Shown: piece by piece, positions 7,111 through 59,487 of the stretch
How the letters are laid out: every line of letters begins with the position of its first letter
How positions within the stretch are numbered: position 1 is the first letter of the stretch
From: Haplodiscus bocki
Lineage: Eukaryota
Reading direction: 5' to 3'
Assembly: GCA_965655095.1 (NCBI GenBank)
Contig: OZ296650.1
Coordinates: 23,312,001 to 23,376,000 of the forward strand
Length of the DNA stretch: 64,000 bases
The notes under the pieces: generated by a model
Databases searched by the model: none
Seen by the model: only the letters and a program-made list of their open reading frames with translations
Told to the model about the DNA's origin: nothing
Translations under genes and position numbers: made by a program

Positions 7111-8699
7111 CTGAAACAGAAACCCCATAATCGCACTTCATACACACAACGTGCTTGAACCACAAGAAGTGTTCAAGACTATCAAGCGAGGGCGGAGCTT
7201 GATTGCTCAAAACTTCAAAAACTGATTTACAACTACTTCATACAATCTAAAGTTGGAAAAACTTGTTACACACAGAATGGTTTGACGCAGAGGTGAAGTT
7301 GCGCTTTGCAAACATTTTCACGAAAGGGAGAAACGGGAGGCACTAAAGGCTCATCAAAGAAAACTGCTCATTTGATTTTTGTAAAGGTTTCGTAATATTT
7401 TACAAGAAAAGTTTCAACTAAAGAAAAGGAAAATATAGATTTTCAATTGCAATCCTTTTTAAGGGGATTGAACTCAAGCGCTGGATGGCTACAAAGAAGT
7501 TCTTAGTCCCAAGAAAACTTTTGAATAGACGACTGAAAACAAGAGGCGCAGTCGCAATGCGATATTTTCCGTCAATGTGGCGGTTAAATATTTGGTCGAA
7601 CAAACAACAATTCAGTTTTACACATAAGCCAAACTTGGCCAAAAACATCTCGATGGAGATCTTGTCGAAAGAATTCAAGCCGATTGCTTTTGAGAATATT
7701 CAGTTTGAAAATCGACATACTCACAACATTAATTGAACCTTTTTGCATGTTCAGCTTATCAACATTCCAATCTAAGGGACACAGTCAAAATTTGTTCCAT
7801 CTAAGATAAATTCAAAAAGATGTCACCGTCAATTCAGACCTTGAAAAACGAATTCAAAAATGTTGTTTTCGAGAAGGTCGATTTGGAATAACAAGATAAT
7901 TCAATACTAAAATAACTTTTGCCAAATTTGGTCAATCAAGACTCCAAATCCGATGTAAAAGACAAATTTCATGATTTTAAGGAATGAACCATCTGTTTCA
8001 GGTAAAAAGCAATCGATTGACAAGTTGAAGGGAAAATTAACCAGGTAGAGCTGAAGAAATATGAGATTGATTTTCGAGGCATGTCAAGACCAACACCACT
8101 TTCTGTCAATTCTGGTCACTCAGATTTCCACTGAATGGATGAGAAAAAAAAACATTTTTTATTGGAACACTGCAGCAAAAAAAGAAAACTAAAGAAGGAA
8201 AAACTCAAGCCAGTATTTTCGGAGAAAGAGGAGTTTGAAAATCGACTTGAGTCCAGATTATCAGATTGTAAGAACTTCCGGCGATTTCAATGCAGGAACA
8301 GGGTTGACAATGTTTTAACCCAATTTTACTTGAAAAGTACAGACTTTTAGATTGCGATATGTAGTGGAATAAATCGACCCAGTAGTTATGAAGATACATG
8401 AGTTCGAATGAAGAGATTTTTCGATATTGGGAGTATTTTTGGCATTCTCGGACTATAAGGACCGCGATACAAGGCACGAATTCAATGAAGGTCAAATCGA
8501 ATAGTCTACCAAAAAAATCAAAGAATGAGATATTGCAGCTAGAAACCAAGTCAGAGGTTATGAAGAACTAATAGCTGGGATTGATAAAAAATTGTCAAAA
8601 CGATAGCAGCTGTTTGGCATTCCTGAACTAACAAAAATCCAATACAAAGAACAGAATCTTTGCTTTTAGCAGCCAATTTAACTCGCAGCTGAAGGTCCC

Positions 8700-9850
8700 T
8701 CGCTTTATATTTCGATGAAGGAAATTAGACTGGTAGCTACGTAGAAAGGAATGTTTGTATCTGGTGATGAATCAAAACTAATAGCACAATTTAGAATCTT
8801 CGGACTATCACAATTCTAATTTCACAATTCAAGGACCAAAACAAATACTGAATCTAATTCTGCTCCAAAAGTATTATTTGTTCGATTGAGACCTTGACGG
8901 AAAAATTAGGACTGTAGGTACAGCTAAATTTGAGATTGAATATGGAGATGCATCAAAATCGTTAGCACAATTGGAATAATCGGATCATCAGCATTCTGAG
9001 CCGAGAAGAGGATTGAAAGATTATTCCGTTGAACAGTCTCAAGCTTTCGATTCAGATTTTGACGGAAAAATTGGTCGCTAGTTACAGAGAAAGTTGAGAT
9101 AGAATAGGGAGATGAATCAAAATTGTGAGCACATTTGGATTCATCGGAGACAATCAAAACGTTGAGGCAAGGATGAGAACGATTTAATTTCTAACTAACC
9201 ATTACTGCAAAAGTTTCAAGCTTTCGATTGAGACCTTGGTGGAAGAAATTAAGCCTATAGTTATAGAGAATTTTGAGATTGAAGATCGAAATTACTCAAT
9301 GAAAAAACGTTCGATTTTTGGGAATGGCCGGACTCTGAGAACAACTGGCTGACTGAAAGTTGAATCAAATCCTTCTCTCCAGGTGGAAGGTTGCTGATTG
9401 TGAACCTCATGAAGGAAATCAAAACTGTAGTTACGGAGAAACACAATCACGATAATCGAGATCAATCACTATTAGTAACAACTTTCTGGAAATTTTGGAT
9501 TATTTTGATGCAAGGATCAATATTAATTCTTTTTCAATCGAATCTCTCTCTACAGTAAGGCTTCCAATTGACACGGATGAACTCAAACCTGCAGTTGCTG
9601 AGAAAATTCCTTTTGGAAAACGATGTATATCAATACTGATGGCATTTTTCAGAAATTTCGGACTATGGGGATTGTGACGCAAGACACAGAAGCAACGATT
9701 TTTCTAAGTAGTACTCCTTTACAGGTAGAACAATTCTGATTGGAGCTTAAAGGAATGAATTGAACCTTGTATTCTTGGAGAAAAGTGAGTTGCAACATAG
9801 AGGAAATTCAATACTAATTGCGCTTTTCGCTATTCCCTCAATCTGGAGAT
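8700..9850 (+). repeat. Degenerate tandem repeat of about 165-180 bp (about 7 units), coding-like
   Basis: Unit core ttcgattgagaccttgacggaaaaattaggactgtag(t/g)tacagagaa recurs near 8710, 8881, 9044, 9221, 9400, 9565 and 9760. Confidence 0.6.
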
Positions 9851-34711: not shown

Positions 34712-35366
34712 TATTTCTTTCTTTTTTTTCTTCTGAAAAGTACTATTCCTTGGAGCACGCCTTGGAAGACAAAGTATAACCTCTATCGCAGCATGGTCCT
34801 ATCTGTCCTTCTCTATGGCGCCGTCATCTGTTCTCCAAGTATGTCTTCGTTGAAGAAAATGGAGTCCTTCCAAAAATTTTGCTTTCGGTGGATTTTTGGA
34901 AAAAAGCTGAATTATGAAAGAACTTTGAAAACTAACAACCTACTGCCAATTGCTTACCATATAGAGCTGGAGTCCCATTCACTTCTACTTAACTTACTTT
35001 TAAATAAATACGCCTACAATGTTGATGAAATAGTGACGTATCATCCACGAAAACCTTATAAAAGGCTGAGTTCTTTCAACCCCCTTGTCCTTTCTTCGAA
35101 CATGAAACATTCTGTTCTGAGAAACTCAGTTATGTCTTTCAATTATCTCCATCGTCATTCTATAATCAGTGAACCGCATCCATCCTCAATCAGAAGTGTA
35201 AAAATTTTTCTGAATAAAACCTTTGATTTCGATAATACTTGTACCTATTATATTTGTTGCTGCTGTGCTAAATGCTCACATTTGAAAAGTCTGATATGAT
35301 CTTTCTCTTCTTACATTTCTAAGATACCTGAAAAGGAATTAAGTCTTTCTCTCTCTCTCTCTCTCT
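34712..35366 (+). mobile_element. 5'-truncated non-LTR retrotransposon (CR1/L2-like 3' end) with (CT)n tail
   Basis: KYNLYRSMVLSVLLYG...KKMESFQKFCFRWI is an RT C-terminal region ending in a Cys cluster (CCCCAKC), followed by a short UTR and (CT)n. It is inserted into the integrase of copy 1 with CTCA on both sides; the empty site is visible at 40561. Confidence 0.88.
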
Positions 35367-37746
35367 CTCAAGAGGTTTAGCAGTCGCTTTATGATCGTAA
35401 TAGGAAGGATAACGGTGATAGGATTCAATGAGTGTCTTTTGCGGCATCTCAAAATTACGTATCATTGCATCCTGAAGTTCGTGGACAAAGTCTGACATGG
35501 CGTCGACTGCTTCAAAAGCCTTGCTGAAAAAAATGGAGATCGAGCGGTTTATAAGGTCCACGTCCCTGAAAAAGTGTACACGGACTAGAGCCAATGGAAG
35601 AGTGATAGCTAGTATTATGAATAAACGTAGCTAACGGAACATACTTGTTCCAGTCGCTCGAATGTTCGTCCGTATTACATTGCAAAAGCCTGTTAAACAT
35701 GGCATGTGAACGTTCAACAACGCCTATCGTCTGAGGGTGCTTCAGGGTAGCATGCTTTAAAATAAGTTCGAGCAACGTAGCCAACTCCTTCATTATGTCG
35801 GGCTTAAAGTTGGTACCAAGATCAGTCATCATAGTACGGGGAATGTAACTCTGCTGAAAAAAGAAGCAACAAATTCAAGTGCAACAGTATCAGCACTTGC
35901 GTTAGTCAGGTACTGTAAATAAATACTTGGTAAAACTTATACACTGTAAGAACGAACTTATACACCGCACTCGGTAGGGGTCCAACCAAATCTGCTTGGA
36001 ACAAGTCAAACGGAAATGACTGTTGAGTAGCCAAAGACTCTAACGGTGGGCCAATTTGTTTGTTCGGTACACGGTTAAGCTGAAGACAAGTAAGGCAATC
36101 CTTGATGAAATGAGCATGATGTTCGTTGGAATTAGGATAGGAAAACCGTTCGAGAAAGTCAAGAGTCGTTCTAACTATGCCTAAATGGCCCGCAGTGGCG
36201 GAATTATGAAGACGATAAATCGTTTTTTTTTCCATACAAGTTGTGGAACACAAAATTGTTCAACTTAAACCGCTCCTACGGCGTCAAAGAACTGACGGTG
36301 AAGAACACCATCTTTAACGACGGATCGATTGAAATGTTTGGCATACTTGCGCATATTGGCAATAGCGTACTGTAAATATGGAACAGAGCTAGTCACTTTC
36401 CAACGCAAAAACGTTTTGAATATCAGGATCTTTTTTGCTTGTTTCTGAACCAAATTTATTTCCCCAAATTCGCTGGACGTTAAAAAGGAGTCCATCGAAT
36501 CAGATTCCTGGACAATACTAACGCTAGGACTCTTTTGTGACAATTGGACAAAACCAACAACTGATGATTCATCTTCACACGGGATAGTCTTATGCTGTTG
36601 TAAATAAGCATCATAGACACCCAAGTCTTTCAACAGGGTTTCTAAGTGCTGGCCCAACGACTCTTCCGGGAGGAGCTCGTCGAAGGACGTGAAATGAGAC
36701 ATCGAAAGGTCAGGTTGTTTTGCTTTCCTTTCAATTCCAATTTCACGCACCACAATTTCATCAGTCAATTTGAATTCAAACTCTAGTGATTGATCGTTTC
36801 CAGAAGGGACAAAAAAATCAGCGGCGTAGTTGGCACGGCCTGCAATGTGAGCAAATGTCGAATGGAAACAGAGAACCCTATGAAGACAATTCCGCAACGA
36901 AGGCGGTACGGCCTTGGATTGAAAAAATCTCGTAGGACTCTTATCATCAGTCAAAATAATAACTGGTTTACTAGATTCACAAAGATAGTGAGCAAAAGCA
37001 TCTAACGCAACATAAAGTGCAAGAAATTCCTTGTAGTAAATAGGAACTTGAGTTGAGCGGTGTCAAACAAATGAGACCCAAATGAAACAGGATCATAGTT
37101 TTGCTTGCCCGAGGGTAAAACTTTCGTTTCATCCTCGACTATTAAAACGAATCCGGCTCCATGACAACTTGCGTCACAAAGTAGTACGTACTGTAAACCA
37201 GGTTTAGCTAACTGAAGAGTGATTTTGGTCGCATCAATGAAATGACGTTCAAGGACTTCAAGTGCTCCGACATGGGTTTCATCAACTTCAAGATAGGCCT
37301 CTAAAAACAACTTATAAAACGGAATAGGTTTGGTTCCAAGATTCGGAATGAAGTTCCGGAAAAACTCAACAAAACCAATAGGAGGTCTCACCTGCTTTAC
37401 CGTACGAGGAAGACAGATCTAGGACAAGAACTTCGTAAACTTCTCACTTTCAGGAGTAATACAGTGTTCGGAAATTACATTACCTAAAAATTTCATTGAC
37501 GCAGTGGCAATTTCACATTTTTCGGGGACGAGTTTGAGACCTGAGCGACGAATCGGTGCAAAGATAGCATCAAGCGCAGGAATAAGTTCATCAAAAGATG
37601 AGATCTCGTGATATCGATTTCAGTTCGTTGTAAATCAGACAAAAATTATCGTCGTGTTCTTGAGTAACTTCCATAACAAAGTCAGTAAATGCTGATGCGT
37701 GTTGTTGTAATCTATCAATGTTTTCGGCAATCTGGCCTCCAGTATC
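35367..37746 (-). repeat. Duplicated env-fragment/RT-RH-IN segment, copy 1
   Basis: The ORF track shows the same 106, 115, 229 and 129 aa ORFs twice with a few substitutions; frameshifts are shared. Confidence 0.95.
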
Positions 37747-38367
37747 CTGAAAAGAACCAAAAAATCCTGTGATTCCATTCCATTGATTTCCTATCATGAT
37801 ACTTGAACCGAAGACACCATTTCCGGCTGGGGCGACTGCTGCGCCAGGTAGACCACGCTTTTGGCGTTGAACATGTTGTTCTTCCATCGTCAAGAGAAGT
37901 GATGTTTCATTTCCCATATCGCACACATTTTCTTTCGCAGCCTGCAATTCATCCAAAACTTTAGCATAAAGCCAGTTAACATTGAACGGTTTACTTGACC
38001 CATTAAAAGGGAAGGATTCATCCAACGGACAAAAAAATGTCCGTGTCGCCCACATAGTTGCCAATGTTTGTAAACGTTCCTCAATCTGAGTTTTAACCTC
38101 AAACGTAAATTTTGGGAATGGTACTAAGAACTCAACGTGAACAAGCTTTTCAGCGAGAAGTATTTTTGACTCTTCGTGGAACATGATACCACTTCCCAAA
38201 ACTTCTGCGTACTGATCCTGAGAAACTTGTTGTTGTGTCAAGTGTATAAAGGTGAAAGTAAGAACGAGAAAGAGAACCTTACCACGTTGGCAATCTAGGA
38301 ACTTTGAAATCGAAATTGGTATAACCATTTGCGATGCTGAACTACTTCGTATCAATTTATTGAACAT
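37600..38367 (-). pseudogene. env: Env 5' fragment of family 2
   Basis: Hydrophobic signal, GIMFHEESKILLAEKLVHVEFLVPFPKF (versus GVFFHEETKILLAENFVNAQFLVPYPKF in family 1), furin RQKR plus fusion peptide; truncated by a junction to RT. Confidence 0.88.
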
Positions 38368-40446
38368 AAGATGCTCTGTTGAAGTGATTCTTTTTAGCTG
38401 GTTGACTAAGTACGCCCTACTTAGTAATCAAAGCGTATGAAGGGAGGCAGTCATTCGTTTGAATACTCAAAGTTGAGTTCCACAAACTACTATTCTTAAC
38501 TTCTGATACATTTAACTACTTTGACTCATGTGCTTTGAGTGATCAAATTTTCATTTATTTCCCGAACTCACGGAACAAAACTTTCTTTGCTTTAAAATTA
38601 TTTGATTGCCCTTAGAGGGCATAAACAAGCAAAAAAGTAAATGTTACGGGAGTTTTTCGGATACGCTTGTGACAATGTCTTCCTGCCCCCAAATTAACAG
38701 TGGTAGCCTTACTATTTACTGCTGTAGCAACGCATCCATAGCCAGTAGTCGTAGCATTTGAGCCCTTGGTTGAAGGATGTACCCTCCTTTAAAATTTTAG
38801 TCAGCAGCATTACTCCACAGTTAGAATTTACTCCAGATACTCGAGCTCTACTTTCCGTTTTTATAGTTATATAAAGTATTTTTATCATTTGTATGTATGT
38901 CGCTGGAAGATTTTATAGAAGAAATCGAAGATCTACCAAATAGTTCAGATTGTATCTAGTACATACTGTAGACAGTATTGTAATCAGTACAAACATTAGT
39001 CTAGTGTATAGTAACAGTATTAGATGCCAATTATTTGATTACACTTACTGTAGACATCGTCGTAGAGAGTGGATCTACTTACAGATTGTAAACGGTTAGC
39101 AAACGTATTATTGCAGTTAGAACCCGTTAAATATCTTTATTAAATGCAATTTCATATTAGTAATTAAAGGTATATATTGCTAATTCATGCTAAATATCCA
39201 ATGTTACGGCCTATATTAGCTATTGCTTTAAAGGCCTGAGTTGCTTAGGGTGTCTTCTAAGTGGGCTGTCACTAATTGTCGCGATAACGTATTATGTGAT
39301 TGACCTTTTACATACACAATCAGCAAATGTTGATGCTGGGACTAATCTGTCAAAATTGTGTTGAATAATGATTTACAGATGATTAATGCACTCTGCTTAG
39401 CGTGCTTGTTATATTGCTCTTCTGCGTTCTAACAATACAGAAGAGGATTTCAAGGTGGCCTTCTCTCCTTAATCAGAAGGAACGGAAGCTGATGCGGGAC
39501 CGTTCACGGAGTTTGTCGCTGTCTGAATCTTGTTATACCAGAACAAGAAGGTGGCAACTGTCTCAGAATGTCTTGATGCTTTGGGTGTCTTCAGCCACCT
39601 GACGTGACGACATGACATACACCACACGTGCCGGCCAATGCTTCACTTCTGCACGACAAGTTATGGAAGCTGCCAGCTTTCCTGGGAGGCAACCAAGGTG
39701 CTCCTGCAGCTCAGTTAGTCAATGTTTGGATCTTTTACGTGCTGTTTTAATATTTATAAATTTTTTAAGACAGTGGTTTGGGTCGCGTGCGGGATCAGGT
39801 CTTATGATATTTGAGCGTACTCCGAGTGTCTTGTGTGTTTCTTTGTTATCACACAAGGCCAAACCATCAGTGCCAAGCCTCCTGTATCTCATCAGCTGAG
39901 GAAATGGTGAACAGAGCTCGGGTACACTTTTCCAGAGGACACCCTAGACGCACCCTATTGATTTTCGGGAATTGGTATACGACTAGCTGTAGGTCTCGGA
40001 CGCAACTTTACTGGTGAAGGAGGCAAGGCCTCTACAGATGAGCCCAAAACTTGTTCATCTTCCCACATGGGGGTGGGGGAGCAAAGGTATTCCAGGAACT
40101 GCCACATGAAGCCGGCAGTTCGAACGGAGGATTAACTGGGGCCGGGGGTAATGTCACTGGCGCACCCGGAAGAGGTGCTCGAAATGATAACGATGACAGT
40201 CGCGGCCGGATGAATAGTACTACGCGGAGACAAAGATACTGAATCCTCGATGAACAATGCAGGGAAGTGTGGATGAAAAACTTCCAGTTCCCTAATCGTA
40301 AAAAGGCTTGAAGGGTCAGGTTTAAAATTCGACGGATTAATCTCATCAAAGTCATCAGGAGGACTATCAGGAGAAAAAGGACGCAGTCGAATATGATGTA
40401 CATATTGCTTGTAATTAGTTCCGACCTTCCTGACAACAAAATAAGA

Positions 40447-42940
40447 ATGCGTTAAAACCTTTTCAACTCGATGCGAAGGAATCGAAGTCTGCCCAGACCT
40501 CGGAGTACCAGCTTTTTGAACAAGCAAATTCGGATTCAAAATAAAACAAAAATGATGCCACTCAAGAGGTTTAGCAGTCGCTTTATGATCGTAATAGGAA
40601 GGATAACGGTGATAGGATTCAATGAGTGTCTTTTGCGGCATCTCAAAATTACGTATCATTGCATCCTGAAGTTCGTGGACAAAGCCTGACCTGCCGTCGA
40701 CTGCTTCAAAAGCCTTGCGGAAAAAAATGGAGATCGAGCGGTTTATAAGGTCCACGTCCCAGAAAAAGTGTACACGGACTAGAGCCAATGGAAGAGTGAT
40801 AGCTAGTATTATGAATAAACGTAGCTAACGGAACATACTTGTTCCAGTCGCTCGAATGTTCGTCCGTATTACATTGCAAAAGCCTGTTAAACATGGCATG
40901 TGAACGTTCAACAACGCCTATCGTCTGAGGGTGCTTCAGGGTAGCATGCTTTAAAATAAGTTCGAGCAACGTAGCCAACTCCTTCATTATGTCGGGCTTA
41001 AAGTTGGTACCAAGATCAGTCATCATAGTACGGGGAATGTAACTCTGCTGAAAAAAGAAGCAACAAATTCAAGTGCAACAGTATCAGCACTTGCGTTAGT
41101 CAGGTACTGCAAATAAATACTTGGTAAAACTTATACACTGTAAGAACGAACTTATACACCGCACTCGGTAGGGGTCCAACCAAATCTGCTTGGAACAAGT
41201 CACCCGGAAATGACTGTTGAGTAGCCAAAGACTCTAACGGTGGGCCAATTTGTTTGTCCGGTACACGGTTAAGCTGAAGACAAGTAAGGCAATCCTTGAT
41301 GAAATGAGCATGATGTTCGTTGGAATTAGGATAGTAAAACCGTTCGAGAAAGTTATGAGTCGTTCTAACTATGCCTAAATGGCCCGCAGTGGCGGACTTA
41401 TGAAGACGATAAATCGTTTTTTTTTCCATACAAGTTGTGGAACACAAAATTGTTCAACTTAAACCGCTCCTACGGCGTCAAAGAACTGACGGTAAAGAAC
41501 ACCATCTTTAACGACGGATCGATTGAAATGTTTGGCATACTTGCGCAAATTGGCAATAGCGTACTGTAAAGATGGAACAGAGCTAGTCACTTTCCAACGC
41601 AAAAACGTTTTGAATATCAGGATCTTTTTTGCTTGTTTCTGAACCATATTTATTTCCCCAAATTCGCTGGACGTTAAAAAGGAGTCCATCGAATCAGATT
41701 CCTGGACAATACTAACGCTAGGACTCTTTTGTGACAATTGGACAAAACCAACAACTGATGATTCATCTTCACACGGGATAGTCTTATGCTGTTGTAAATA
41801 AGCATCATAGACACCCAAGTCTTTCAACAGGGTTTCTGAGTGCTGGCCCAACGACTCTTCCGGGAGGAGCTCGTCGAAGGACGTGAAATGAGACATCGAA
41901 AGGTCAGGTTGTTTTGCTTTCCTTTCAATTCCAATTTCACGCACCACAATTTCATCAGTCAATTTGAATTCAAACTCTAATGATTGATCGTTTCCAGAAG
42001 GGACAAAAAAATCAGCGGCGTAGTTGGCACGGCCTGCAATGTGAGCAAATGTCGAATGGAAACAGAGAACCCCATGAAGACAATTCCACAACGAAGGCGG
42101 TACGGCCTTGGATTGAAAAAATCTCGTAGGACTTTTATCATCAGTCAAAATAATAACTGCTTTACTAGATTCACAAAGATAGTGAGCAAAAGCATCTAAC
42201 GCAACATAAAGTGCAAGAAATTCCTTGTAGTAAATAGGAACTTGAGTTGAGCGGTGTCAAACAAATGAGACCCAAATGAAACAGGATCATAGTTTTGCTT
42301 GCCCGAGGGTAAAACTTTCGTTTCATCCTCGACTATTAAAACGAATCCGGCTCCATGACAACTTGCGTCACAAAGTAGTACGTACTGTAAACCAGGTTTA
42401 GCTAACTGAAGAGTGATTTTGGTCGCATCAATGAAATGACGTTCAAGGACTTCAAGTGCTCCGACATGGGTTTCATCAACTTCAAGATAGGCCTCTAAAA
42501 ACAACTTATAAAACGGAATAGGTTTGGTTCCAAGATTCGGAATGAAGTTCCGGAAAAACTCAACAAAACCAATAGGAGGTCTCACCTGCTTTACCGTACG
42601 AGGAAGACAGATCTAGGACAAGAACTTCGTAAACTTCTCACTTTCAGGAGTAATACAGTGTTCGGAAATTACATTACCTAAAAATTTCATTGACGCAGTG
42701 GCAATTTCACATTTTTCGGGGACGAGTTTGAGACCTGAGCGACGAATCGGTGCAAAGATAGCATCAAGCGCAGGAATAAGTTCATCAAAAGATGAGATCT
42801 CGTGATATCGATTTCAGTTCGTTGTAAATCAGACAAAAATTATCGTCGTGTTCTTGAGTAACTTCCACAACAAAGTCAGTAAATGCTGATGCGTGTTGTT
42901 GTAATCTATCAATGTTTTCGGCAATCTGGCCTCCAGTATC
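40447..42940 (-). repeat. Duplicated env-fragment/RT-RH-IN segment, copy 2
   Basis: 40561-42940 is near-identical to 35367-37746 (offset 5194), and 40447-40564 matches 34594-34711. Confidence 0.95.
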
Positions 42941-47100: not shown

Positions 47101-47524
47101 CGAAAAGTACCCAAGAAATTTAGGAATTCCCATATCACTATCGATACAGAAAACACTGATTTGCTGAAGATGACTGCTAAGACTGAAGCGACTGTGTTAA
47201 AGTTGACACTTGTCCGTTGTATTGGAAACAGCATCTGTGTCCAAGCTTGTAGTAAAAGAAAGCAGAGACAGAACAACTCAAAGTGTGGTTGTAGAACTTG
47301 CCAATTTTCTTTAGTAACCACTTATTCAACCTGCTTTGTACCCATCAAGTCCTTTGAGACCATGAAGAGCTCCTGAAGTGATGTACGAAATCGGGTAACA
47401 AGGTTACGAATGCCTTTTGTATAACCTGAAACATCCGTTTTGCTTGCTGCAGTAGTGCTTGTTTGGTCCAGGCATCTACCAAAAAGTCTGGTTAATTCAC
47501 ATCCGAATTGTCACCTAAAGCATC

Positions 47525-47821
47525 TGTAATATTCTGATGAATATTTTATTTAGAAGCATGATTTTAATTTGATTAATTTTGAAAAACATGAAATCTTGGC
47601 GCTATTAAATTTCTTGGAGTTTAAAAGACAAGGAACCCTCCCCTTATCGGAAATAATAATATCCGGAGAAATAGACAACCAATAAACCAGTGGAAAAAAA
47701 ACAAACACCTAATATCCGCATGGAAATTAAATGTAAAGAAGAGATATTGAGTATAAACTTTTATTGAATTATAATTTACGCATGATGACAAAAAAATAGA
47801 TTGGATAATTTATAAAGCTGT

Positions 47822-47863
<42 letters not shown>

Positions 47864-48049
47864 CTTCGGGGATTGCTACTAAATAGTTGCCTGTATGCCT
47901 GAAATTAATTCTTAAAAGGCCTCAACAAAGTTTTCTTCCTCACACCACGCACTGAAGATAGCCACTAAAAAAATAAATCAAAGTCTTCCAACTAGTAGAG
48001 GACTGAAAACCATTTCCAAACAAAGGACAAAAACCCAAGGAATTTTACA
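47525..48049 (+). repeat. 5' LTR (525 bp) with internal (GA)n microsatellite
   Basis: Direct repeat of 58973-59482; TG...CA ends with 5-bp inverted termini. Confidence 0.97.
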
Positions 48050-48062
48050 TGGTGACAAGGAG
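48050..48062 (+). promoter_or_regulatory. Primer binding site (TGGTGACAAGGAG)
   Basis: TGG immediately follows the 5' LTR. It resembles tRNA-Ser(GCU)-type (TGGCGACGAGGA) or Trp-type (TGGTGAC) PBS; the tRNA cannot be determined here. Confidence 0.8.
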
Positions 48063-48091
48063 GAAGTGAGGAATACAACTATTCGAAAACG

Positions 48092-49243
48092 ATGGCAGCA
48101 GCAAATCCACAACCACATATTACTCTCTACCCATTCCGCGGAAAAGCAGATGAAAACTGGCCAGATTTCGAAAGTCTTCTCAAAAGTCTCATCAATGTTG
48201 GCAATATCCCAATTGCCAACCGACCCCAGTTTCTTCAACTTCACTTACTAGATCAAGCCCTGCAGTTCTTCAGAACATTGCCACAAGAAACCAGAGATAA
48301 ATTTGATGCAGCAATAACGGCACTGAGAAATCATTACTGCAACCCAAACCTTCGAGAACTCCACAAACTACAGCTTCACCACTTAAAATTTGACCACAAG
48401 CATGGTAGTCCAGAAGACTTCTTGGTACAAGTGCAGATAAAAGCAACACAAGCTTACCCAGACCCAGTGTTACCACCAATTCCGCCAGCTAACCCACCGA
48501 ATGAACAAGCAGAAATTGACAGAGTCCAGAACGCACAAGAGGCAAACCAAGCGGTACTAGAAAATGCAGTTAATGAGCGGAACAGGAGAATCAAGGAAAT
48601 CTTCACGAACGCCATGCCAAATTTTATCAAAAGAAAACTACTGGACCAAAATGAGGCAGCAACGGTGCAAGACCTTTGTACAGTTGCAAGACGCCAGATG
48701 GTATTCTTCGAACTTTGTCCAAGTGACGACTGGACGAGAGATGCCTTCAATGAGGTTAGTTCAACACTTTCCGAAAACTTAGTAGGGGCACTAACAAAAC
48801 TTACACAGCAACAAGATGAACTGAATCAGCAACAAACAGACTTATCTAATAGAATCAATTCACTGAACTTCCCAAGCCACCAAAATTCCAATACTAGTAA
48901 CAATGGTTTTAACCCCTCACAACGCGGCAATTACCGATTCAACAATCAACGAGGATTCAGAGGACAAGGATATGCCAACAACAGAGGACGAGGGCGCCTC
49001 AATAATAACAGAGGTTTTTTCAATGGTAATCAAAATCGTACGGACTACAGCTCCTATCCCAACTATAACTCACCTCACATCCAAGAAGCAAGCAACCAAG
49101 AGCATATAGCTGAAACTACATATTCCAAACAGATATGTTACATTTGTGGTTACCCAAACCACTATGCAAGAGATTGTAACAAACGGAGACCAGCCAATAG
49201 AAACCAACAAATACCATACCAAACCGCACCAAAAAACGAGTGA
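48092..49243 (+). CDS. gag: Gag (intact ORF, 383 aa) with RGG/N-rich region and one CCHC zinc knuckle
   Basis: CYICGYPNHYARDC knuckle, position right after the PBS, and a retrotransposon capsid-like N-terminus. Confidence 0.93.
   Translation: MAAANPQPHITLYPFRGKADENWPDFESLLKSLINVGNIPIANRPQFLQLHLLDQALQFFRTLPQETRDKFDAAITALRNHYCNPNLRELHKLQLHHLKFDHKHGSPEDFLVQVQIKATQAYPDPVLPPIPPANPPNEQAEIDRVQNAQEANQAVLENAVNERNRRIKEIFTNAMPNFIKRKLLDQNEAATVQDLCTVARRQMVFFELCPSDDWTRDAFNEVSSTLSENLVGALTKLTQQQDELNQQQTDLSNRINSLNFPSHQNSNTSNNGFNPSQRGNYRFNNQRGFRGQGYANNRGRGRLNNNRGFFNGNQNRTDYSSYPNYNSPHIQEASNQEHIAETTYSKQICYICGYPNHYARDCNKRRPANRNQQIPYQTAPKNE
49231..49237 (+). promoter_or_regulatory. -1 ribosomal frameshift slippery heptamer A-AAA-AAC (gag-pol)
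   Basis: In-frame X XXY YYZ heptamer one codon before the gag stop. The -1 frame stays open through ...SDVLSYVPLKFP towards the protease. Confidence 0.8.
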
Positions 49244-52200
49244 AGCCACGCCAGTGTGAAAAACAACGAGAGACGACGGATGAACCAAATGAAAAAACAG
49301 CATGCATTTCTCTTGAAAGTGATGTCCTATCGTATGTTCCACTGAAGTTTCCTATCAACCAACAAAAGAAGCACTGATAGATACTGGTGCCTGTGCAAAT
49401 GCGATCAGTGAAAATGACTACGAGGACCTGAAATCAACTTTCGGAACAACAGCAATCATCTCACAACCTTCTGAAGTCAATAAAGTAAAACTAGCTTCAG
49501 GACAACTTATACGTGTGCGTGGCCAAATCCAGCTCGAATTTGCAATAGCAAAAAACCATTTCAAAGAACAATTTTTAGTACTCCCAACAACGAATAGTAT
49601 TATTTTGGGAAACCCATTTTTCAAAAATAACTCCATTGAGCTCTACCCACGAGAAAATCTGATGAAATTACCAGACTTGACACTTCAGTTGAACGAAATA
49701 TCAACACAAACAGATAAAACTGGAAAACCCCAATACACTATCAGAACAATGGAAAAATGCGTCATTGCCCCCAACCAACAAACAACACTGAAATGCAATC
49801 TCCAAACAAAAAACAAACGACTTGCTGATGTATGTGGTATAGTCGAACCAAAAGTAAGTTTTGAAGAAAAAACAGGACTGTGCATCACTTCTTCATTATC
49901 ACGAACTGACTCTGAAGGAAACTTGTACTTATCTGCCTTAAACCTTCAAACCAATGAGATCACTATTCCCCGAATTTCGGACATTGCACTTTTTAAATTT
50001 CTCTCACCCCAACAAGCGGAAACATTGACCCCGATAGAGCCACAACTACTAACATTGGCCAAAGTCAAAAATCCAGACGACTTTGAGAAAGAAATCAACC
50101 AACTGATAATTGACGAAGAATTTAATGCAGATTCTCAACCACCTAGACCGAAACCCGACTACAAAAGATTCTGGTTCCCAACGCCAGAAACATGTAAGAA
50201 CCCCACAGCACTGAAAGGTGTTGAGAAGAGAATCTACAACGAACTAGAAAAGCTAAGGCAACTAGACAGTTTAGACCCACACATTAATGATGAACACCGT
50301 AACCAGTTTTTACAGAGATTCAAATGGAATGAATCTATACTTAAAGTGGATGAAAAACAGCAAGTTGAAGACTTACTGCTAAAATTTTCGGATATTTTTG
50401 CCAAACATAGATTTGATGTTGGATATAAATCCTAGATTTCGTTGAAGCTATACCCAGAACATGACCAACCGGTCTACACCCAAAGCCCACCAACGCCGAT
50501 CCACTTACGTGAAGAACTACAAGTAGAGCTTGCCCTCCTACAATTTTTCGGAATCATTACAAGCCTCAATCATTCAAAATACAGTAGCCCAATCTTTGCA
50601 CACCGCAAACCTAATGGAGAACTCAGAATTCTAGTGGATCTACGCCGAATCAATCACCTTCTCTTACATGATTATCATAACAACAATTTCCCGATTTCAT
50701 CAATGGCAGATACCACAGCACATTTCGCCGGAAAATCAATCTTTTGTAAATTAGATTGCTCTGAAGCCTACCATTTTGTACAAATGGCTGACCCTCTTTC
50801 GGTCCAGCTACTTGCATTTAATTTTGCTTCCCGAACTATGACTTACCAAAGACTAGCTAGAGGTCTGAACAGATCAGTTACAGGCTTCAGTGCTTTTGTG
50901 AGAAATTACTTAGAGCCATGTCTCTCAGCAAATATTTGCACACAGTTCATGGATGATATTAGATGCGGAGCGGAATCAGTTGAACATACCCAATTTACGA
51001 CTTATCTTCAAATGCTTACGCAGATCAGGACTCAAACTATCGCCAGAAAAATGTGTTTTTGGATCAGAAAAACTTAGTTTCCTTGGAAATGTCATAAGTA
51101 AAGAGGGCTTACGACCTGAAAAAGACAAAATCGAAAAGTTTCTGAGAAACCTTGAAATACCAAAATCAGTGAAACAAGTAAAACGGCTAATAGGTTTCCT
51201 ACAATTCTTCCGAAGCTTCATCCCGAACCTAAACGAACACCTCATACCCTTCTACAAACTTTTGCGCAAAAATGTCTCGTTCGAAATCACAGATGAAATC
51301 GAGAATGCATTTAAAGTACTACGAGAAAAACTCCAAACCACAACACAAACTCTTCGACTCGCCAAACCGGGACTGCAATACGCCATTCTTTGTGACGCTA
51401 GTTACCACTCCGGCGGGTTTGTACTAATGACAGAAGACTATGTCAAAAACAACAAAGGAGAAACTGTTAAATCTTATGCACCCGTCTCATTCGGATCTAA
51501 AGTTTTCAATACACGGCAACTAAAAATGTCAATATACTGCAAGGAATTCTTATCTCTTTACTTTGCCTTGGAAACGTTTTCTCATTTCATATGGGGAAGT
51601 GAAAAACCAGTACTCATACTGACTGACAACAAAAGTTTGACCAGATTTTTCCAAGCCAAAACAATTCCCCCATCACTTTGGAATTATGTTGACAGAGGTA
51701 CAGCATTCAACATAGTAGTAACACACATTCCAGGAAAAGCGAATGCAGCCGCAGATTTTGTATCTCGCTTGCAATCAAATCCAAACGAAACACTTGAATT
51801 GAAACTGACAGACAGAATCCCGATTAGAGAAATCGAAATAGACGTATGAGCACAACTACCGGATAATACCATCAATGAGCTCTTTGCAGATGACTTACCT
51901 GTAGACCTACTTCAAGTAGTAGATATAAACACATTGGTCACACTCAAACAATCTGGAAACTATGACCAGGCCGTACACCAGTTAAAGAATTTGACTTCAA
52001 ACGGTGAACTACGAATCACGAAATACAAGAAGAAAACAACAGAATTTAATGCAACTCAGCACAAAAACCCAATGGACGACTATCCCGAATTGGAAACAAC
52101 AATAGCTGACTTAAAACAGGAACAAAATTCTGACTCGGTGATCACAAAAGTGATCAAATGGTTGGAAAGTGATTCTGCACCTACAGCGAACATCTACTCT

Positions 52201-53873
52201 ACCGGAGAAGAACAAAAATACCTCAAACAGTTTCGACGATTATTTACAGAAGATGGAACACTTTACAGACGATACTACGCACACGATGGAAAAATGCTGT
52301 ACAAGCATTTGTGTGTACCAAAAACAATACTCAAAGAAGTTATGTACAGACTACACAACGCTCCAAATGGAGGACATTTGGGAATCACGCGGACCATCGA
52401 GGAATTCAGAAAACGTTTCTATTGCCCGAACTATATGAAATTAATTGCAGACTATATCAGAAACTGTTCCACATGCCTGCAAATGAAACAGGTACAACCC
52501 CAGAGACTAAAAACACCCTGCAACGGGTTTCGACATTGAAATCTTACCCAGGCGACCTTATGCAGATAGACATTCTGGGACCATTTCCATCGTCACCATA
52601 CAAATATGTGCTGACAGCTATTGACGTTCTCACTAAAAACCTTTTTGCAGTACCACTGACCACAATCAGTGCACTCTCAGTGGCAACCGCCCTAGTCTCC
52701 ATTATGTTCCAACACAGTTACATACCACAGGAAATACTCTCAGATTTAGGCACACAGTTTGTGTCTGAACTTTTCCATGAACTCACCAAACTACTTGAAA
52801 TCAAAATATCTCATGCATCATTGAAACACCCGCAAACAATAGGTGTCGTGGAAAGAGCACATGCAGCACTAACGCGAATTTTGAAACTAAATAGCAACCA
52901 CACCTTTACAAATTGGCATAAATACATAAACTTAGCAACATTCATCCATAACACATCTTATCATACCTCAATTGGATGCGCACCAACGGTGATCTTCCAT
53001 GGACGAGACCCGGTGAAGCCTTTGGATATTCGCTTCTACAGTAACTGTATCCAGAAATCAGCATTCAACTACGACTTTGTGGAATCACTGAGAGATGAAA
53101 TGTTGAAGAAATTCCAGAATACAAAAGAAAGTCTCGCGAAATCTTTAAACAGATATAGGAGATATTACGACCGAAAGGCAAGGGCAAATCCCCTCACAGA
53201 ACACACATATTGCTTATTGTTGAACCCTCGACTCACAGAACAATCAGCTTTCAGCCCTAAAACTATCCGGAAATGGCTTGCTCTGTATAGAGTGGAGAGA
53301 GTTTTAACCGCCGCTAATTATCTCATCAGAAAAACTGGAACGAATTATACACAAATTGTCCACCGAATTAGACTACGTCCAATCAAGCCTCAATATCAGG
53401 TAACAGACATAGAGGACATCAACCCTGAAAATTTTCAGACAGACCCAACACTGGGATGTTACAGAGGCGATCAGGACTTCTTTGACAACGGTCTCCCTTA
53501 TCTCCTGGATAATGACCAAGGGGCGCCGGAAAAGAAAATTCCGAATTTGGACAGCCCAGTTCGAGTCTCAATCTCTTTTGGAGCACAACCTCCACAACCA
53601 CTGCCAGCACAAATAGTCAATCAACCCGACGGCATGGCTGTGACAGCAGAACCGGCATCAATTCACCAAGCTCCTAGAGCTGAACAACCTAGAAGAATAC
53701 TTACACCACCACCGTACCCCACAGCTCAGTTGCCGGACTCTTCAGAAGAATCTGATGAATATGCGGAAAACAAAACAGCACCGAGACGCTCGACAAGGAT
53801 ACAAGAACAACAGACCAAACGGTTAGGTGAACGTGTTCTTGAAGTGGCAGGACAACAACTCCAACAACCCTGA
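49238..53873 (+). pseudogene. pol: Pol (protease, RT, RNase H, integrase) with frameshifts and stops
   Basis: PR ALIDTGA (49371); RT YSSPIF...LRILVDLRRIN...KLDCSEAY...FMDD; RH CDAS...LTDNKSL...GKANAAADFVSR; IN H..GH.G...C..C, DDE core and GPY/F-like LYRV...VHRIRLRP. Lesions: frameshifts near 49360, 50985 and 52515; stops at 50433, 51847 and 53871. Confidence 0.95.
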
Positions 53874-54062
53874 TGCAGTAAACGCACAAATCAAGGATAT
53901 TCAGTACAAGCCAGAAACTTTGTGAATCTTCTCAATAACCGTCGACAGCAAAGCCAGCAAATGCAGTTTGTACAAAGACTAGGATCAACCCAAGAAGGAA
54001 CGACTTCGAAGAAGAGTAGAACTGACTTGAACGAAATACAAGCACCTAAGAAAACCTCACAA

Positions 54063-54508
54063 GTGACAATAGTAGAAGACAACCTTTTTGAACTTCATCT
54101 AGCATGGGACATTGTGTTTCTTCAGATTTTTTTATGGGAGCAGGCATTGCTAAGCAATTAGACAGACTCTACCCAAAAATGAAGACAGAAGCCTGCAAAA
54201 AACTAACACCGGGATCAGTGTTAGCATTTTACGACTTTTATTCACGAAGATGGATATACAATTTGGTCACGAAACCAAAAGACTTCCACAAACCCTTCTA
54301 TGATGCACTAAGGAACAGCCTTATCTTGATGCGCAATCACGCTGAGGCTCATCGCGTGAAAAACATTAGACTACCAGAACCTGGATGTGGCCTAGACAAA
54401 CATCAACCACCAATAGTGCACAAAATTCTACACGAAGTTTTCCAACGGACGAGTGTATGTATTACAGTTTGTATTAGAAACGATACGGTATTGAAATGGA
54501 ACGACTGA
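54063..54508 (+). pseudogene. TARG1/OARD1-like macrodomain (ADP-ribose glycohydrolase family), one frameshift near 54093
   Basis: VTIVEDNLF.../MGHCVSSDFFMGAGIAKQL...IYNLVTKPK..HKPFYDALRNSL..MRNH......I.LPEPGCGLD...ITVC aligns along its length with OARD1 ITYVKGDLF...LAHCISEDCRMGAGIA...IYYLITKK...HKPTYENLQKSLEAMKSH...MPRIGCGLD...ITVY. Confidence 0.92.
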
Positions 54509-55595
54509 ACAGACAATGAACTGAAATAGATTGGCAAAGAGACAGAAAAAGGCCCAAAAAGAAAACAAAAAAAATTCCCAACTGGCTGAAGCCCAGAAAA
54601 AGTACAAGAGTTCACAAAACCAAAACGAAAAAAAACACCCCGGAAAACCTGCGGAATAAAACATTTCTGTATCTAACGGTCAGGGACAGGTTGCTACCCA
54701 GCTACATTGATAACAATGGAATCAGTTTTGCAATGAAGTCCCAAAAACCTCAAAATCATGCTAGTCATCAATGAACGCGCACTTCGACTGAGAGACTCAA
54801 AAACTTTAGTGCAGTCCTAAATAGCTCAGCATCAAGCACAGAGAACGCCGATTACAGTAGGATACTAGCCCTAACCTATGGCTTGCAAAACAACTATATT
54901 TGTTGAAAAATTTGAACAAAAAAATGTTCTCCCTATAAAAATGACCGAACGCGGACTTCGACTAACTAAAACTAGTGGGTGAGGCCAACACGTCATACCT
55001 TCCCGAACGCCTAAAACAAAGTTTGTTTCAATAGGATATACGGGATCTCGGATTATGCAAAAATCAAAAAACACAACAAAAAAAACAGAGCCCCCTAACC
55101 ATCATTTAGAAAAAATATTAAACCAACCGAATTATTTGGGAACGGTCCGATGTTTTCGAGCGCCAAACCTCTTTCAAGTGACAATTGTTCCATCATTGCA
55201 ACATTCTAGATTAGCGTCTGCGAACAAAGTAACAAATGAACAATCCATTCTCTGAAAAACAATAGCATAATTCAGAAATATGTAATAAAGTAGCAGATCG
55301 TGAAAGCCCTAAAACAACAGGTCGCTTTACAATAGGCGACAGAAAGCTCATTACCTCAGCAAACAAAATAAATTAGGCTCATTTCCGGTTAAACGACAAT
55401 GCTTAAATAAGGTTTTTAATGAGAAAACCTGAGCCAAAAAAACTCAGAGGACACCTAACACGCCGCCGACATTAATATCCGCCGCAACAAACAACTAACA
55501 GCCATATTACCTCTAGCGATCAGCCCGTAAAAACAACACTTCTACAATTTTTTTACCCATTGTACGAACCAACATAAAAAGCAAAAATACGACAA

Positions 55596-55880
55596 ATGGA
55601 CAAATTGGAAGTTAACTTACAGTGGAAACCATCTGGAAAAGATACCCTGCTGACAATATACTGAATTCAGTGGCAAAAATGCTCCTGTTGTGCACCTCTG
55701 AGACTTTTAATCAGCGAACCTAACATGAACAAGGGCCAAAAAGCGATCTTAGATATTTCCACAACAAACGAGAAGTTCGTTAGCCTTTATAAATTGCTAC
55801 GTCTGTATACATCTACTGATCCGACTGAACTGGATGCGTTAGTTCAATTCATGGCAAATCAAATTATTGAAATAGATTAA
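55596..55880 (+). pseudogene. Accessory ORF A (about 94 aa, CSCC motif; internal TGA at 55662)
   Basis: MDKLEVNLQWKPSGKDTLLTIY*IQWQKCSCCAPLRLLISEP...ILDISTTNEKFVSLYKLL...; paralogous to ORF B. Confidence 0.7.
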
Positions 55881-56277
55881 TTGGTTCCACTGGAACACTA
55901 ACAAATGCATTCCATGACCCAGCAATAACCATGATAGCTCTGACAACTTGTTCATATCTGACCGGACACATTTAAATATCCGTACCAACAAAATCTAATA
56001 TCCGACGAAGTCCAGCTCACACCAACTTTAAATTCCGTCAAAACACCCAATGTGTATTCACGATATTACAATTCCCTTTTATAGCGACAATCTTTCTACA
56101 ACCGGTTCTCCAGTAGTCAGTTACTCATTCCCCTTCTTAAAGAAAACGAAAGCCCCTGAATTTCAACTTTTTTGCATGGCAAAAAAAATCATCTAAGAGT
56201 GGCTGGAGAAGTTTGAAATTAAGTCAAGCCCCTTCTAAATCGAATTAAATACCTTGAAGCCCTATAAGTGGATCAAT

Positions 56278-56596
56278 ATGGAGAATATAATTACAGTTCA
56301 TTGGCAACTTACCCCAATTCAATTACAATTCAAAGTACTCCTACCGTGGACACCACCCGACAGGAACCCTATTTATATCAATAATATTCAACTACAACAA
56401 TGCGGATGCTGTCCCCTCATTCGAGTGAGAGTCTTCAAACCCTACAATGAGACCTACTATATGGAAATTGACAGTGACACAATGGAATACGAGCCTGTAT
56501 GATACCCTGAGCAAACACTACAAATCATTGACGTTAGAATCAACGTTCAAAGTCAAACTAGCAGAACTGTTGGACTATCTAGAAGAGGAACTTTAA
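56278..56596 (+). pseudogene. Accessory ORF B (about 105 aa, CGCC motif; frameshift near 56494)
   Basis: ...FKVLLPWTPPDRNPIYINNIQLQQCGCCPLIRVRVFKP...YMEIDSDTMEYE/LYDTLSKHY...LEEEL*; paralogous to ORF A. Confidence 0.7.
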
Positions 56597-56700
56597 AGCA
56601 ACTTAAATTGCAAATATACCCCCAAATCATCTGTGTTCTAACAGTATTCCAAAATTCAAGGTAGTAAAAAATTCCACCTTCAAAAGAATCAGCCCCCACA

Positions 56701-58890
56701 ATGATTCTACTTTTGCTATTTATAGTAGTAACAGCAGATGATAAAGGTAGTCTTGAACGAGGAGTATTCTTTCATGAAGAGACAAAAATACTTTTGGCAG
56801 AAAATTTTGTAAACGCCCAATTCTTAGTCCCCTATCCAAAATTTGATATTCAACTAACTGAGAGCCTGGACAAAGTTGCAAAAGAATTACAGAACATGTG
56901 GCAAATGCCTACATATCGGTGTTACCTTAGTTTCACAAATACAGGCGAAAACGAATTTAAAGTAGACTGGCTTTTAAAAGAAACAAAAAAGGAAATAGCG
57001 TTCGCTGAAGAAGATCTGACTAACATAAAACAAGAGGTATCCTCCTTCCTGAAGGGTACCGAAATCAAGAAAAGCCAAAGGTCTAGAAGAGCACTACCCA
57101 TAGCAGCCGCAGTTGCTGGCGCCGTAGGATTATTCGGAACAGGCATCATGTTCGGTGCATCAGATGATTGTGGCATTATGGGCATTTTTGGCTCGTGCCA
57201 AGAAAAGGCCAAAACGAATGCCCAAAACATTGAAAAGTTAGGAAAATACGCAATAGCCATTGGAAATAACTTACAACAACTTGCAAATGAAACCGATGAG
57301 AAATTTTTCCGTGTCTCGAAAGATTTATCCCTGCTTCATGAAATCCGAAACCAAATTATAGAAACCCAAAATGAGAACTGGCAAAAGATCGAGAAGCAAT
57401 TTCAAGTACTTCAGGATAATATTCACGACACGCGCGATTGCGACCAACTCTTATACACAAGACAACAGGTGAACTTCAATTTTGATACAATATCTTCCCT
57501 ACTTTCGCTAATCTACAGCAATGTCAAGGCCTATCGCGCCGCACTATTCGCATTCCAGATGAACATAATGAACGCTATTCCCTCTCTACTTTCAAAATAT
57601 ATCCCCATGTCACTCCTACCCAAAGACTCTTTGGAACAAATTTTAAAAGTGGTTGACGACTCACAAGAGAAGTCGGATAGTCGACTTACACTGGCCATCC
57701 CAAAACAAGAACTTCTGGCATATTATGAATCACGCCTACTATTGGACGTATTGACTTTGGATCAGGGTCTTCTGATGACAATGGCAATCCCATTTGCATC
57801 ACGACAAACAGCATTCACAGTGTACAAAGCAATAGTGGTACCTCTACCCCAAATGGACGAAGACATAGCAATTAAATGGGATGTGGAGGCCGAATATTTG
57901 GCAGTATCAGAAAACATGATGGAAACCTCGCTTGTAACGAGAGATCAACTTGACAAATGTATTGGTTCAAGCAAGTATCGAATTTGCCATGACACTTTGG
58001 CAACAGAAAGTAAAGACTCGTCATGCCTCGCAACTTTATATTTTGGAAACATTATGGATGCATTAGAAGTCTGTGATATAGTCCCAGTCCCACTACCACT
58101 GAAAGTCACAGCAACAAACTTGGGATATGGAATATAGCTTATAACTTCAGCCCAGGCCAACTTCGATTTCATAGAAAATTATATGGATGCTACAACACTG
58201 GCAGGCTCAAAAACAGTCAAAGGATGTAGAATTTGCTTGATAACACTAGAATGTGGTAAACAGTTAACTGGCGAAAATATCAGAATCAGGTCTGACCTAT
58301 CGTCATGCGCAAAAGTCCCACCAGTCAAACTGGAAGTGGAACTGCCTCAACCAATGGCAAACCTGTTCAGCCTATTACCAACAGTGGAAGAACTCCCCTA
58401 CTACAATACCAAAGTGGAAGCTAATATGAAACTAATAAAGTCCCTCAAACTGGAACTCCAAGCACAACCACAATACGGCTACAAAAAGAATGTTCAACAA
58501 ATAGCTGAACCTATAGCGCAGAAACTAACTATGTTGAAGCCCTCACTTGAGAAACAATTTAATAACTTTATATCGTGGAAAAGTCATTTGATGATTGGCA
58601 TTGCAGTAGTCGTCCTTAGTGCACTACTACATTTGGGACTAATGCTTGCTCTCCATCGCTACAAAAAATTCCACAAATTCCAACCCTTTTCTCACAAACT
58701 GGACAAAGAAAAAATTCCCCTAAAACCGATAATGGTGGTAGAAGACCAACACTTGAATCGGGTACAGAATGATGAAAATTTTCAATGGCGTAACCACAGT
58801 CTACTCCTACCCGAATCTCAACTGATGGAAGCAAGAGAAGAAAGTGCACCTACATATGCACAACTCAATCGACAAGTGCACCGAGTTTAA
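56701..58890 (+). pseudogene. env: Envelope / class I fusion glycoprotein (single in-frame TAG at 58135)
   Basis: Signal peptide MILLLLFIVVTA; furin site RSRR followed by fusion peptide ALPIAAAVAGAVGLFG; heptad region; Cys-rich ectodomain; TM LMIGIAVVVLSALLHLGLMLAL; tail YAQL. The two ORFs share a frame, separated by GYGI*LITSA (probably TGG>TAG). Confidence 0.92.
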
Positions 58891-58972
58891 GAAGAACTAA
58901 CCTCAAGAAAGCATGGATAATAATTACAACAAATGAAAAAAGAGCCGGAGAAATAAACTTAAAGTCGGCTAG

Positions 58973-59482
58973 TGTAATATTCTGATGAATATTTTATTTT
59001 GAAGCATGATTTTAATTTGATTAATTTTGAAAAACATGAAATCTTGGCGCTATTAAATTTCTTGGAGTTTAAAAGACAAGGAACCCTCCCTTTATCGGAA
59101 ATAATAATATCCGGAGAAATAGACAACCAATAAACCAGTGGAAAAAAAACAAATACCTAATATCCGCATGGAAATTAAATGTAAAGAAGAGATATTGAGT
59201 ATAAACTTTTATTGAATTATAATTTCCGCATGATGACAAAAAAAATAGATTGGATAATTTATGAAGCTGTAAAAAAAGAGAGAGAGAGAGAGAGCTCTTC
59301 GGGGATTGCTATTAAATAGTTGCCTGTATGCCTGAAATTAATTCTTAAAAGGCCTCAACAAAGTTTTCTTCCTCACACCACGCACTGAAGATAGCCACTA
59401 AAAAAATAAATCAAAGTCTTCCAACTAGTAGAGGACTGAAAACCATTTCCAAACAAAGGACAAAAACCCAAGGAATTTTACA
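58973..59482 (+). repeat. 3' LTR (510 bp)
   Basis: Differs from the 5' LTR by about 6 substitutions, a 1-bp A-run indel and a 16-bp shorter (GA)n tract (counted by eye). Confidence 0.97.
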
Positions 59483-59487
59483 GCATC

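Follow-up and report, generated by a model that had tools for sequence, protein, structure and literature searches.

Enzymes that erase ADP-ribose are carried by RNA viruses and phages, and the macrodomains of RNA viruses are thought to oppose PARP defence. Among retroelements, a NADAR domain is present in the Pol protein of an Ectocarpus Gypsy element and in ORF1 of an oyster Tx1 element (available text of PMC12477816), and epsilon-like endogenous retroviruses (ERVs) of fish carry macro-domain ORFs (Basta et al. 2009, as cited in an excerpt of PMC4977317). Human TARG1 reverses thymidine ADP-ribose on DNA, with Lys84 and Asp125 as catalytic residues (PMC9411070, in part). According to the accessible part of a preprint, it also reverses uracil-N3 and guanine-N1 ADP-ribose on RNA, marks that are placed by PARP10/PARP15, and Lys84/Asp125 are again required (bioRxiv 10.64898/2026.03.31.715305). 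We found no description of a TARG1-type domain in a Ty3/gypsy Pol in the literature within reach, with most subscription papers, Repbase and GyDB lying beyond it; the word 'macro' is absent from the available portion of PMC12440569.

The element described here lies in a window of 64,000 nucleotides from Haplodiscus bocki (assembly GCA_965655095.1, contig OZ296650.1, positions 23,312,001 to 23,376,000). On the forward strand of this window, a decayed 12-kb Ty3/gypsy element occupies positions 47525-59482, flanked by the target-site duplication GCATC (47520..47524, with the identical 5-mer at 59483-59487). The 5´ LTR (47525..48049, with TGG directly after it at 48050) and the 3´ LTR (58973..59482, adjoining the second copy of the duplication) have TG..CA ends and differ by about 6 substitutions over 508 aligned bases. 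The ORF list and a domain search place gag, a 395-aa open frame with a CCHC zinc knuckle, at 48056..49243. Pol (49323..53873), recognized by Pfam and ending at the stop at 53871, comprises protease (PR), reverse transcriptase (RT), RNase H (RH), integrase (IN) and the start of a linker, and is interrupted by two internal stops and two frame changes. The TG..CA LTRs, the target duplication and the order PR-RT-RH-IN assign the element to Ty3/gypsy (Metaviridae). Further downstream, 56668..58890 holds an env-like gene that is interrupted by a single stop at 58135 and that Atlas features suggest to be an F-type fusion protein. The ORF scores 0.96, of low recognition value, to a cluster 26% of whose members carry Fusion_gly, and Fusion_gly/Baculo_F occur in a minority of members of its nearest clusters; Pfam and PDB sequence searches with it gave no match. 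The env-like frame is conserved, with 88 matches. Pfam detected no chromodomain after the integrase, and a macrodomain occupies that place instead. This copy of the element is dead.

The window holds other remnants of repeats. On the reverse strand, two near-identical decayed pol remnants (35358-37604 and 40231-42798) are related to the lineage of the 12-kb element, hereafter lineage A, at 36-47% identity, and an env-like piece lies beside them (37621-38199). A macrodomain was not detected in either pol remnant, both of which are truncated. Degenerate repeats with a spacing of about 165-180 bases (families D4, D5, D9) were also seen at 7669-9624.

A preliminary description of this locus, made from its letters, proposed that the frame of pol stays open beyond its TGA into the first strand of a macrodomain, that one frame change near 54093 separates this strand from the rest, and that the catalytic pair of TARG1 is retained. 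All of this is borne out. The frame 52173-53873 stops at the TGA (53871..53873), and the same frame is open over 53874-54161, passing through VTIVEDNLF at 54063-54089, with the remainder of the domain in a different frame at 54092-54508. The second half of the linker (53874..54062) is polar and probably disordered, judging from the composition of a close copy whose linker is 58% P/S/T/Q/E/R/K and 20% hydrophobic. Frames, fold and other loci delimit the macrodomain to 54063..54508, and the change near 54093 splits it in the window copy. Aligned to human TARG1, the codon at 54272..54274 encodes the Lys equivalent to Lys84, and that at 54395..54397 the Asp equivalent to Asp125.

The class of the domain had been given as TARG1 (OARD1), with DarG and MacroD to be compared, and TARG1 came first in both sequence and structure searches. 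The best PDB match is human TARG1 (phmmer E 3.5e-18), and all five matched sequences are TARG1/C6orf130; the Pfam Macro match to the window domain is weak (E 0.0015, below the cut-off). For the structure model we used the macrodomain of the natural close copy (pLDDT 89.5). In a Foldseek search with this model, ranks 1-8 were TARG1 (top match with an rmsd of 1.1 Å), DarG appeared from rank 9, and viral MacroD domains gave far weaker matches (E about 1e-6, 11-18% identity). The domain combines a compact macro fold nearest to TARG1 with the Lys84/Asp125 pair. A DarG-type domain has the catalytic Lys without the Asp partner; here the Asp is present, and the fold match to DarG is weaker than that to TARG1. 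From the modelled fold and the catalytic pair, the macrodomain is most likely an active TARG1-type hydrolase.

Comparison with natural copies settles how the domain relates to Pol. A search of the genome (1.5 Gb, 6626 contigs) gave 5598 candidates, of which 150 were scored and the best 30 taken as loci. All 150 scored candidates, many of them in one tandem array, match the macrodomain, so the domain in the window is not a chance resemblance. The array, at G000:C1:120.05-120.18 Mb, repeats lineage A linker-macrodomain fragments with a period of about 1.5 kb and makes up a large share of the genome match list. We compared the fusion in natural copies only, at the 29 loci besides the window. The preliminary description had reasoned that a TGA kept in all copies would speak for a separate ORF or read-through; instead, the place of the stop at 53871 is a sense codon in 27 of the 29, with one stop and one locus unaligned. 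Linker and macrodomain share one frame in 27 of the 29 as well (one is like the window and one is unaligned). The window copy has suffered two lesions here: the stop at 53871 and the shift of frame near 54093.

Most copies have decayed elsewhere, and the integrase C-terminus, linker and start of the macrodomain form one open frame in 6 of the 29 loci, 4 of which are open through the domain end. The close copy, at 93% identity, has a 978-aa frame that runs from the end of RH through the integrase into the macrodomain, and in a database protein of 552 aa integrase and macrodomain are joined in the same way. A sister family of lineage A, with a macrodomain about 41% and an env 47% identical, has a 1923-aa frame in the order PR-RT-RH-IN-linker-Macro-tail, and of the 110 matches to this family at E 1e-40, 7 fall within frames of 1915-1923 aa. 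The ancestral Pol proposed at the outset, PR-RT-RH-IN-linker-Macro, is thus found in nature, in part as the 978-aa frame and in full in the sister family. The natural copies in which one reading frame spans integrase, linker and macrodomain exclude a separate ORF or read-through of the stop. In this env-bearing Ty3/gypsy lineage, the macrodomain is genuinely part of the Pol polyprotein and is maintained by selection.

Between its pol and env genes, the sister family also has an antisense ORF of about 370 aa (L031:8809-9927, reverse strand), which has 114 genome matches at 38-100% identity, conserves an H-x-E...K...H pattern and carries a basic tail. Sequence searches with this ORF gave nothing. 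Its structure model (pLDDT 69) resembles the JmjC oxygenases FIH, TYW5 and KDM7, with a best E of 4.5e-6 and a TM of only 0.3-0.4. We looked for this JmjC-like ORF in the window copy and did not find it there.

Selection was examined by pairwise dN/dS among the 10 of 30 loci that are in-frame throughout the region, with subgroups set by identity. The preliminary description had held that a domain found only in this copy and evolving neutrally would point to passive capture; the domain is present in many copies, and its ratios are not neutral. Between diverged subgroups, dN/dS of the macrodomain is 0.13-0.27 (one comparison saturated), and within close groups 0.33-0.40, values that include decay after insertion. 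The corresponding ranges are 0.17-0.30 between subgroups for the linker (two saturated) and 0.07-0.12 for the integrase C-terminus (four saturated). By these ratios, the macrodomain is under purifying selection. The catalytic Lys is found in 31 and the Asp in 28 of 32 aligned rows, one of them a duplicate. Sister families retain every motif of the macrodomain at about 41% identity, and their linker is barely alignable. The macrodomain of the window has R/K/K at the TARG1 RNA-binding positions K50/R86/R126 and a net charge of +9. All three positions are basic in 6 of 20 lineage A rows against 19 of 125 other rows, which is not a clear enrichment, and lineage A macrodomains are basic overall (mean net charge +9.8 versus +4.4).

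The same type of domain was found in two further lineages of this genome. Lineages A, B and C are pairwise 26-28% identical over RT/RH and carry the macrodomain at three different positions of Pol. Lineage B, with 38 matches under a strict first look, has the order PR-Macro-RT-RH-IN, as in the 1859-aa Pol at L034:1015-6594 (forward strand), and 13 of the 38 matches are in stop-free frames of 1858-1859 aa. No env-like ORF of at least 150 aa is present in the 3 kb downstream of this Pol, where we noted a 190-aa acidic antisense ORF. Lineage C, with 139 matches, has the order PR-RT-RH-Macro-IN followed by an env-like gene (Pol at L033:1951-6762, forward strand; further loci L036-L041), and consists of several families that are 50-73% alike. 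Its RT is 44% identical to that of an Athalia rosae element with a macrodomain in the same slot. Lys and Asp are retained in 19/20 and 20/20 lineage A rows, 10/10 lineage C rows, 4/4 lineage B rows and 6/6 insect rows, and all catalytic and binding motifs persist in A, B and C across deep divergence. A genome search at E 1e-60 with P0081, a PR-Macro protein, was without match. The pattern is broader than the preliminary description saw, with the sister family contributing a JmjC-like gene in antisense as well.

Among the 150 best of 1832 representatives, we scanned 48 longer proteins. Retroelement domains occur in 4 of the 48, including proteins of Athalia rosae and Molorchus minor; in the Molorchus minor protein (P0159), a retrotransposon gag domain accompanies a TARG1-type macrodomain, possibly through the joining of two gene models. 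DNA ligase, BRCT and PNKP domains are fusion partners of cellular homologues, and phage homologues are distant (under 35% identity in the 15 listed out of 17 records). To see how far the domain has spread, we then sampled insect-type Pols by integrase similarity to one macro-bearing insect-type Pol, taking the best 120 of 622, the named ones being mostly from aphids. The macro profile used for them was built from rows other than insect retroelements, with matches accepted up to E 1e-3 and reversed controls scoring no more than 6.3 bits. The bridge between RH and IN matches this profile in 97 of the 110 Pols with a full bridge, a figure for this neighbourhood and not for all insect elements. 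In the other 13 the domain is undetectable, and a second round with an insect profile brought back just 1 of these. Lys and Asp are both present in 87 of 102 insect proteins with matches, and the remaining 15 lack one of them or are partial. In P0038, P0192-P0196 and P0197-P0314, the stretch from RNase H to integrase holds one or two macro-like domains, ranging from intact to heavily eroded; in the degenerate examples shown, the ADP-ribose-binding loops are lost. The Atlas score of a degenerate bridge domain was 0.77, which serves as a lead only. The automatic NCBI name of P0275 already includes 'Macro domain'.

A five-stranded 'pseudo' RNase H has been described in this very slot, in the bridge from RH to IN, in nearly all insect errantiviruses (PMC13524379, as available). 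The word 'macro' is absent from the main text of that paper, and the matches displayed from its supplement are species names. Given that our insect macro matches fall in the same slot, the 'pseudo' RNase H of insect errantiviruses may be a macro-derived domain, a testable re-reading of a domain found in most of these elements.

The host has its own candidate for TARG1, a single-exon, single 328-aa frame (L035:1341-2327, reverse strand) with an N-terminal half that matches no assigned domain and a C-terminal macrodomain that includes both catalytic residues. The close copy is only 39% identical to it, and the host protein has none of the three basic residues at the RNA-binding positions and a net charge of -2. 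The genome also has 31 PARP-domain matches over the Pfam cut-off. Several of these occupy one frame each of 1700-2400 aa, and in some the PARP domain is doubled; the sequences suggest an expanded, intron-poor set of host PARPs. In a careful tree of 53 rows, thinned from 167 domains and with a bootstrap that had not settled, A and B are joined (95/86), C (100/99) and the insect RH-Macro-IN rows (98/88) are separate, and the host TARG1 candidate falls outside all of these groups. In AU tests on quick trees, neither a grouping of A+B+C (p 0.80 and 0.87) nor one of A+host (p 0.84) was rejected, results that are uninformative because the constrained trees beat the free search.

We suggest, with a probability of roughly 55%, that the macrodomain serves in counter-defence, as a particle-borne eraser of host ADP-ribose on the RNA, cDNA or proteins of the element. 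Judging from the Ty3/gypsy life cycle, a macrodomain made within Pol would be packaged in the particle together with the genomic RNA and would then travel with the reverse-transcription and pre-integration complex. There it could strip off ADP-ribose placed by host PARPs or other transferases on RNA bases of the element, on thymidines of its cDNA or on acidic residues of proteins. Such marks might otherwise block reverse transcription, translation or integration; the RNA bases marked by PARP10/PARP15 would form the pairing face that is read during reverse transcription. The outcome would be counter-defence or self-repair, as with the macrodomains of RNA viruses, but by an enzyme of the TARG1/DarG class. 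Three slots in three diverged lineages fit an enzyme that needs only to be present in the particle, and a conserved domain that takes other positions in unrelated lineages suggests self-defence against host ADP-ribosylation. The many PARP-like frames of the host agree with this reading, as do the basic residues of the window domain at the RNA-binding positions. Against it count the lack of a clear enrichment of these three residues in lineage A, the eroded or missing domain of some insect Pols, by which certain lineages can do without the activity, and the two truncated pol remnants of the window that show no macrodomain.

The enzyme could instead have a housekeeping role, clearing PARP1/2-type ADP-ribose from cDNA ends, nicks or the integration gap and thereby letting integration and repair run to completion. 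TARG1-type enzymes do act on ADP-ribose linked to nucleic acids (PMC9411070, PMC8120803 and bioRxiv 10.64898/2026.03.31.715305, each in part), and the cellular fusions to DNA ligase, BRCT and PNKP domains would suit such a role. We nevertheless consider it unlikely, if the strongest of the alternatives, since the host owns a TARG1 candidate, many Ty3/gypsy elements do without the domain, and its patchy gain and loss more resembles conflict.

Ranked after this, and improbable in our judgement, is a chromodomain-like reader attached to the integrase that steers integration to ADP-ribosylated or damaged chromatin. The lineage A domain does sit in the chromodomain position, behind a long flexible linker, the domains of lineage C and of insects lie directly N-terminal to the integrase, and Gypsy elements have repeatedly gained chromatin readers here (available text of PMC13524379 and PMC12477816). 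In lineage B, however, the domain lies between protease and RT, distant from the integrase; the catalytic pair is retained, and an active hydrolase would erase the very mark that it reads. Of the three functions offered in the preliminary description, it is accordingly the chromodomain analogy that is weakened, the domain also being found in the PR-RT and RH-IN slots elsewhere, and the shifting position together with the retained pair favours a particle-borne eraser over a targeting reader.

It is more doubtful still that the domain serves Pol without catalysis, by binding RNA or as a structural spacer, its enzyme residues being kept as a by-product. The basic character of the lineage A domain would agree with this, as would the eroded insect forms, which keep the fold signal without the binding loops, and the Lys and Asp may be retained for binding; yet A, B and C have kept all catalytic and binding motifs over deep divergence. 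Passive capture of a host gene followed by neutral drift is very improbable: the host candidate has a single exon and the AU test does not reject A+host, but the close copy is far from that candidate, the in-frame fusion spans many families, and dN/dS between subgroups largely rules out neutrality.

A particle-borne eraser would have consequences beyond this element. The selected TARG1-type enzyme in Pol is indirect evidence that hosts use ADP-ribosylation against LTR retrotransposons, and it occurs in three deeply diverged lineages of this genome as well as in numerous insect elements. We also entertain, tentatively and as something short of an even chance, a wider reading in which animal Ty3/gypsy Pols have long and repeatedly carried a TARG1-type eraser, as a module that was overlooked and that has moved between co-resident lineages into three slots, with the 'pseudo-RNase H' as its eroded form. 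If true, base-linked ADP-ribosylation of RNA or cDNA would be a real host defence against LTR retroelements, and a JmjC-like oxygenase would give the sister elements a second enzyme for removing marks. The domains are small enzymes suited to assay against the newly reported ADP-ribose marks on RNA bases.

Among known systems, the domain is closest to human TARG1/OARD1/C6orf130 (PDB 4J5S, 4J5R), with which it shares the fold, the catalytic pair and the motifs H-C-x-S-x-D, G-x-G-I-A, T-K and G-C-G-L-D. TARG1 is a stand-alone host enzyme, whereas the domain described here, at about 37% identity, is a predicted enzyme and part of a retroelement polyprotein. The macrodomain of bacterial DarG (PDB 5M3E, 23% identity) is likewise of the ALC1/TARG1 class and has the catalytic Lys, but lacks the Lys/Asp pair (PMC9411070, in part), and we saw no DarT-like partner in the element. 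Coronavirus Mac1 and alphavirus nsP3 are also polyprotein-borne erasers of ADP-ribose, but are of the MacroD class and match the fold less well. Env-bearing Ty3/gypsy elements ('errantiviruses' in the wide sense) and chromoviruses share the LTR-gag-pol-env layout and an extra domain after the integrase (PMC13524379, available part), and their F-type env has a putative counterpart in the env-like gene of the element. The NADAR retroelements also place an ADP-ribose-processing domain within a retrotransposon protein, but theirs has a different fold and is N-terminal in Pol (PMC12477816, available text), and NADAR acts on guanine-N2 ADP-ribose, which TARG1 does not (bioRxiv 10.64898/2026.03.31.715305, in part). 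The fish ERVs, too, are env-bearing LTR elements with a macrodomain, but they belong to Retroviridae, and their macro domains are additional ORFs and not fusions to Pol (PMC4977317, excerpt). The element of H. bocki is thus an LTR element with a captured accessory domain, for which the NADAR domain of the algal Gypsy Pol, the macro ORFs of fish ERVs and existing database annotations are precedents.
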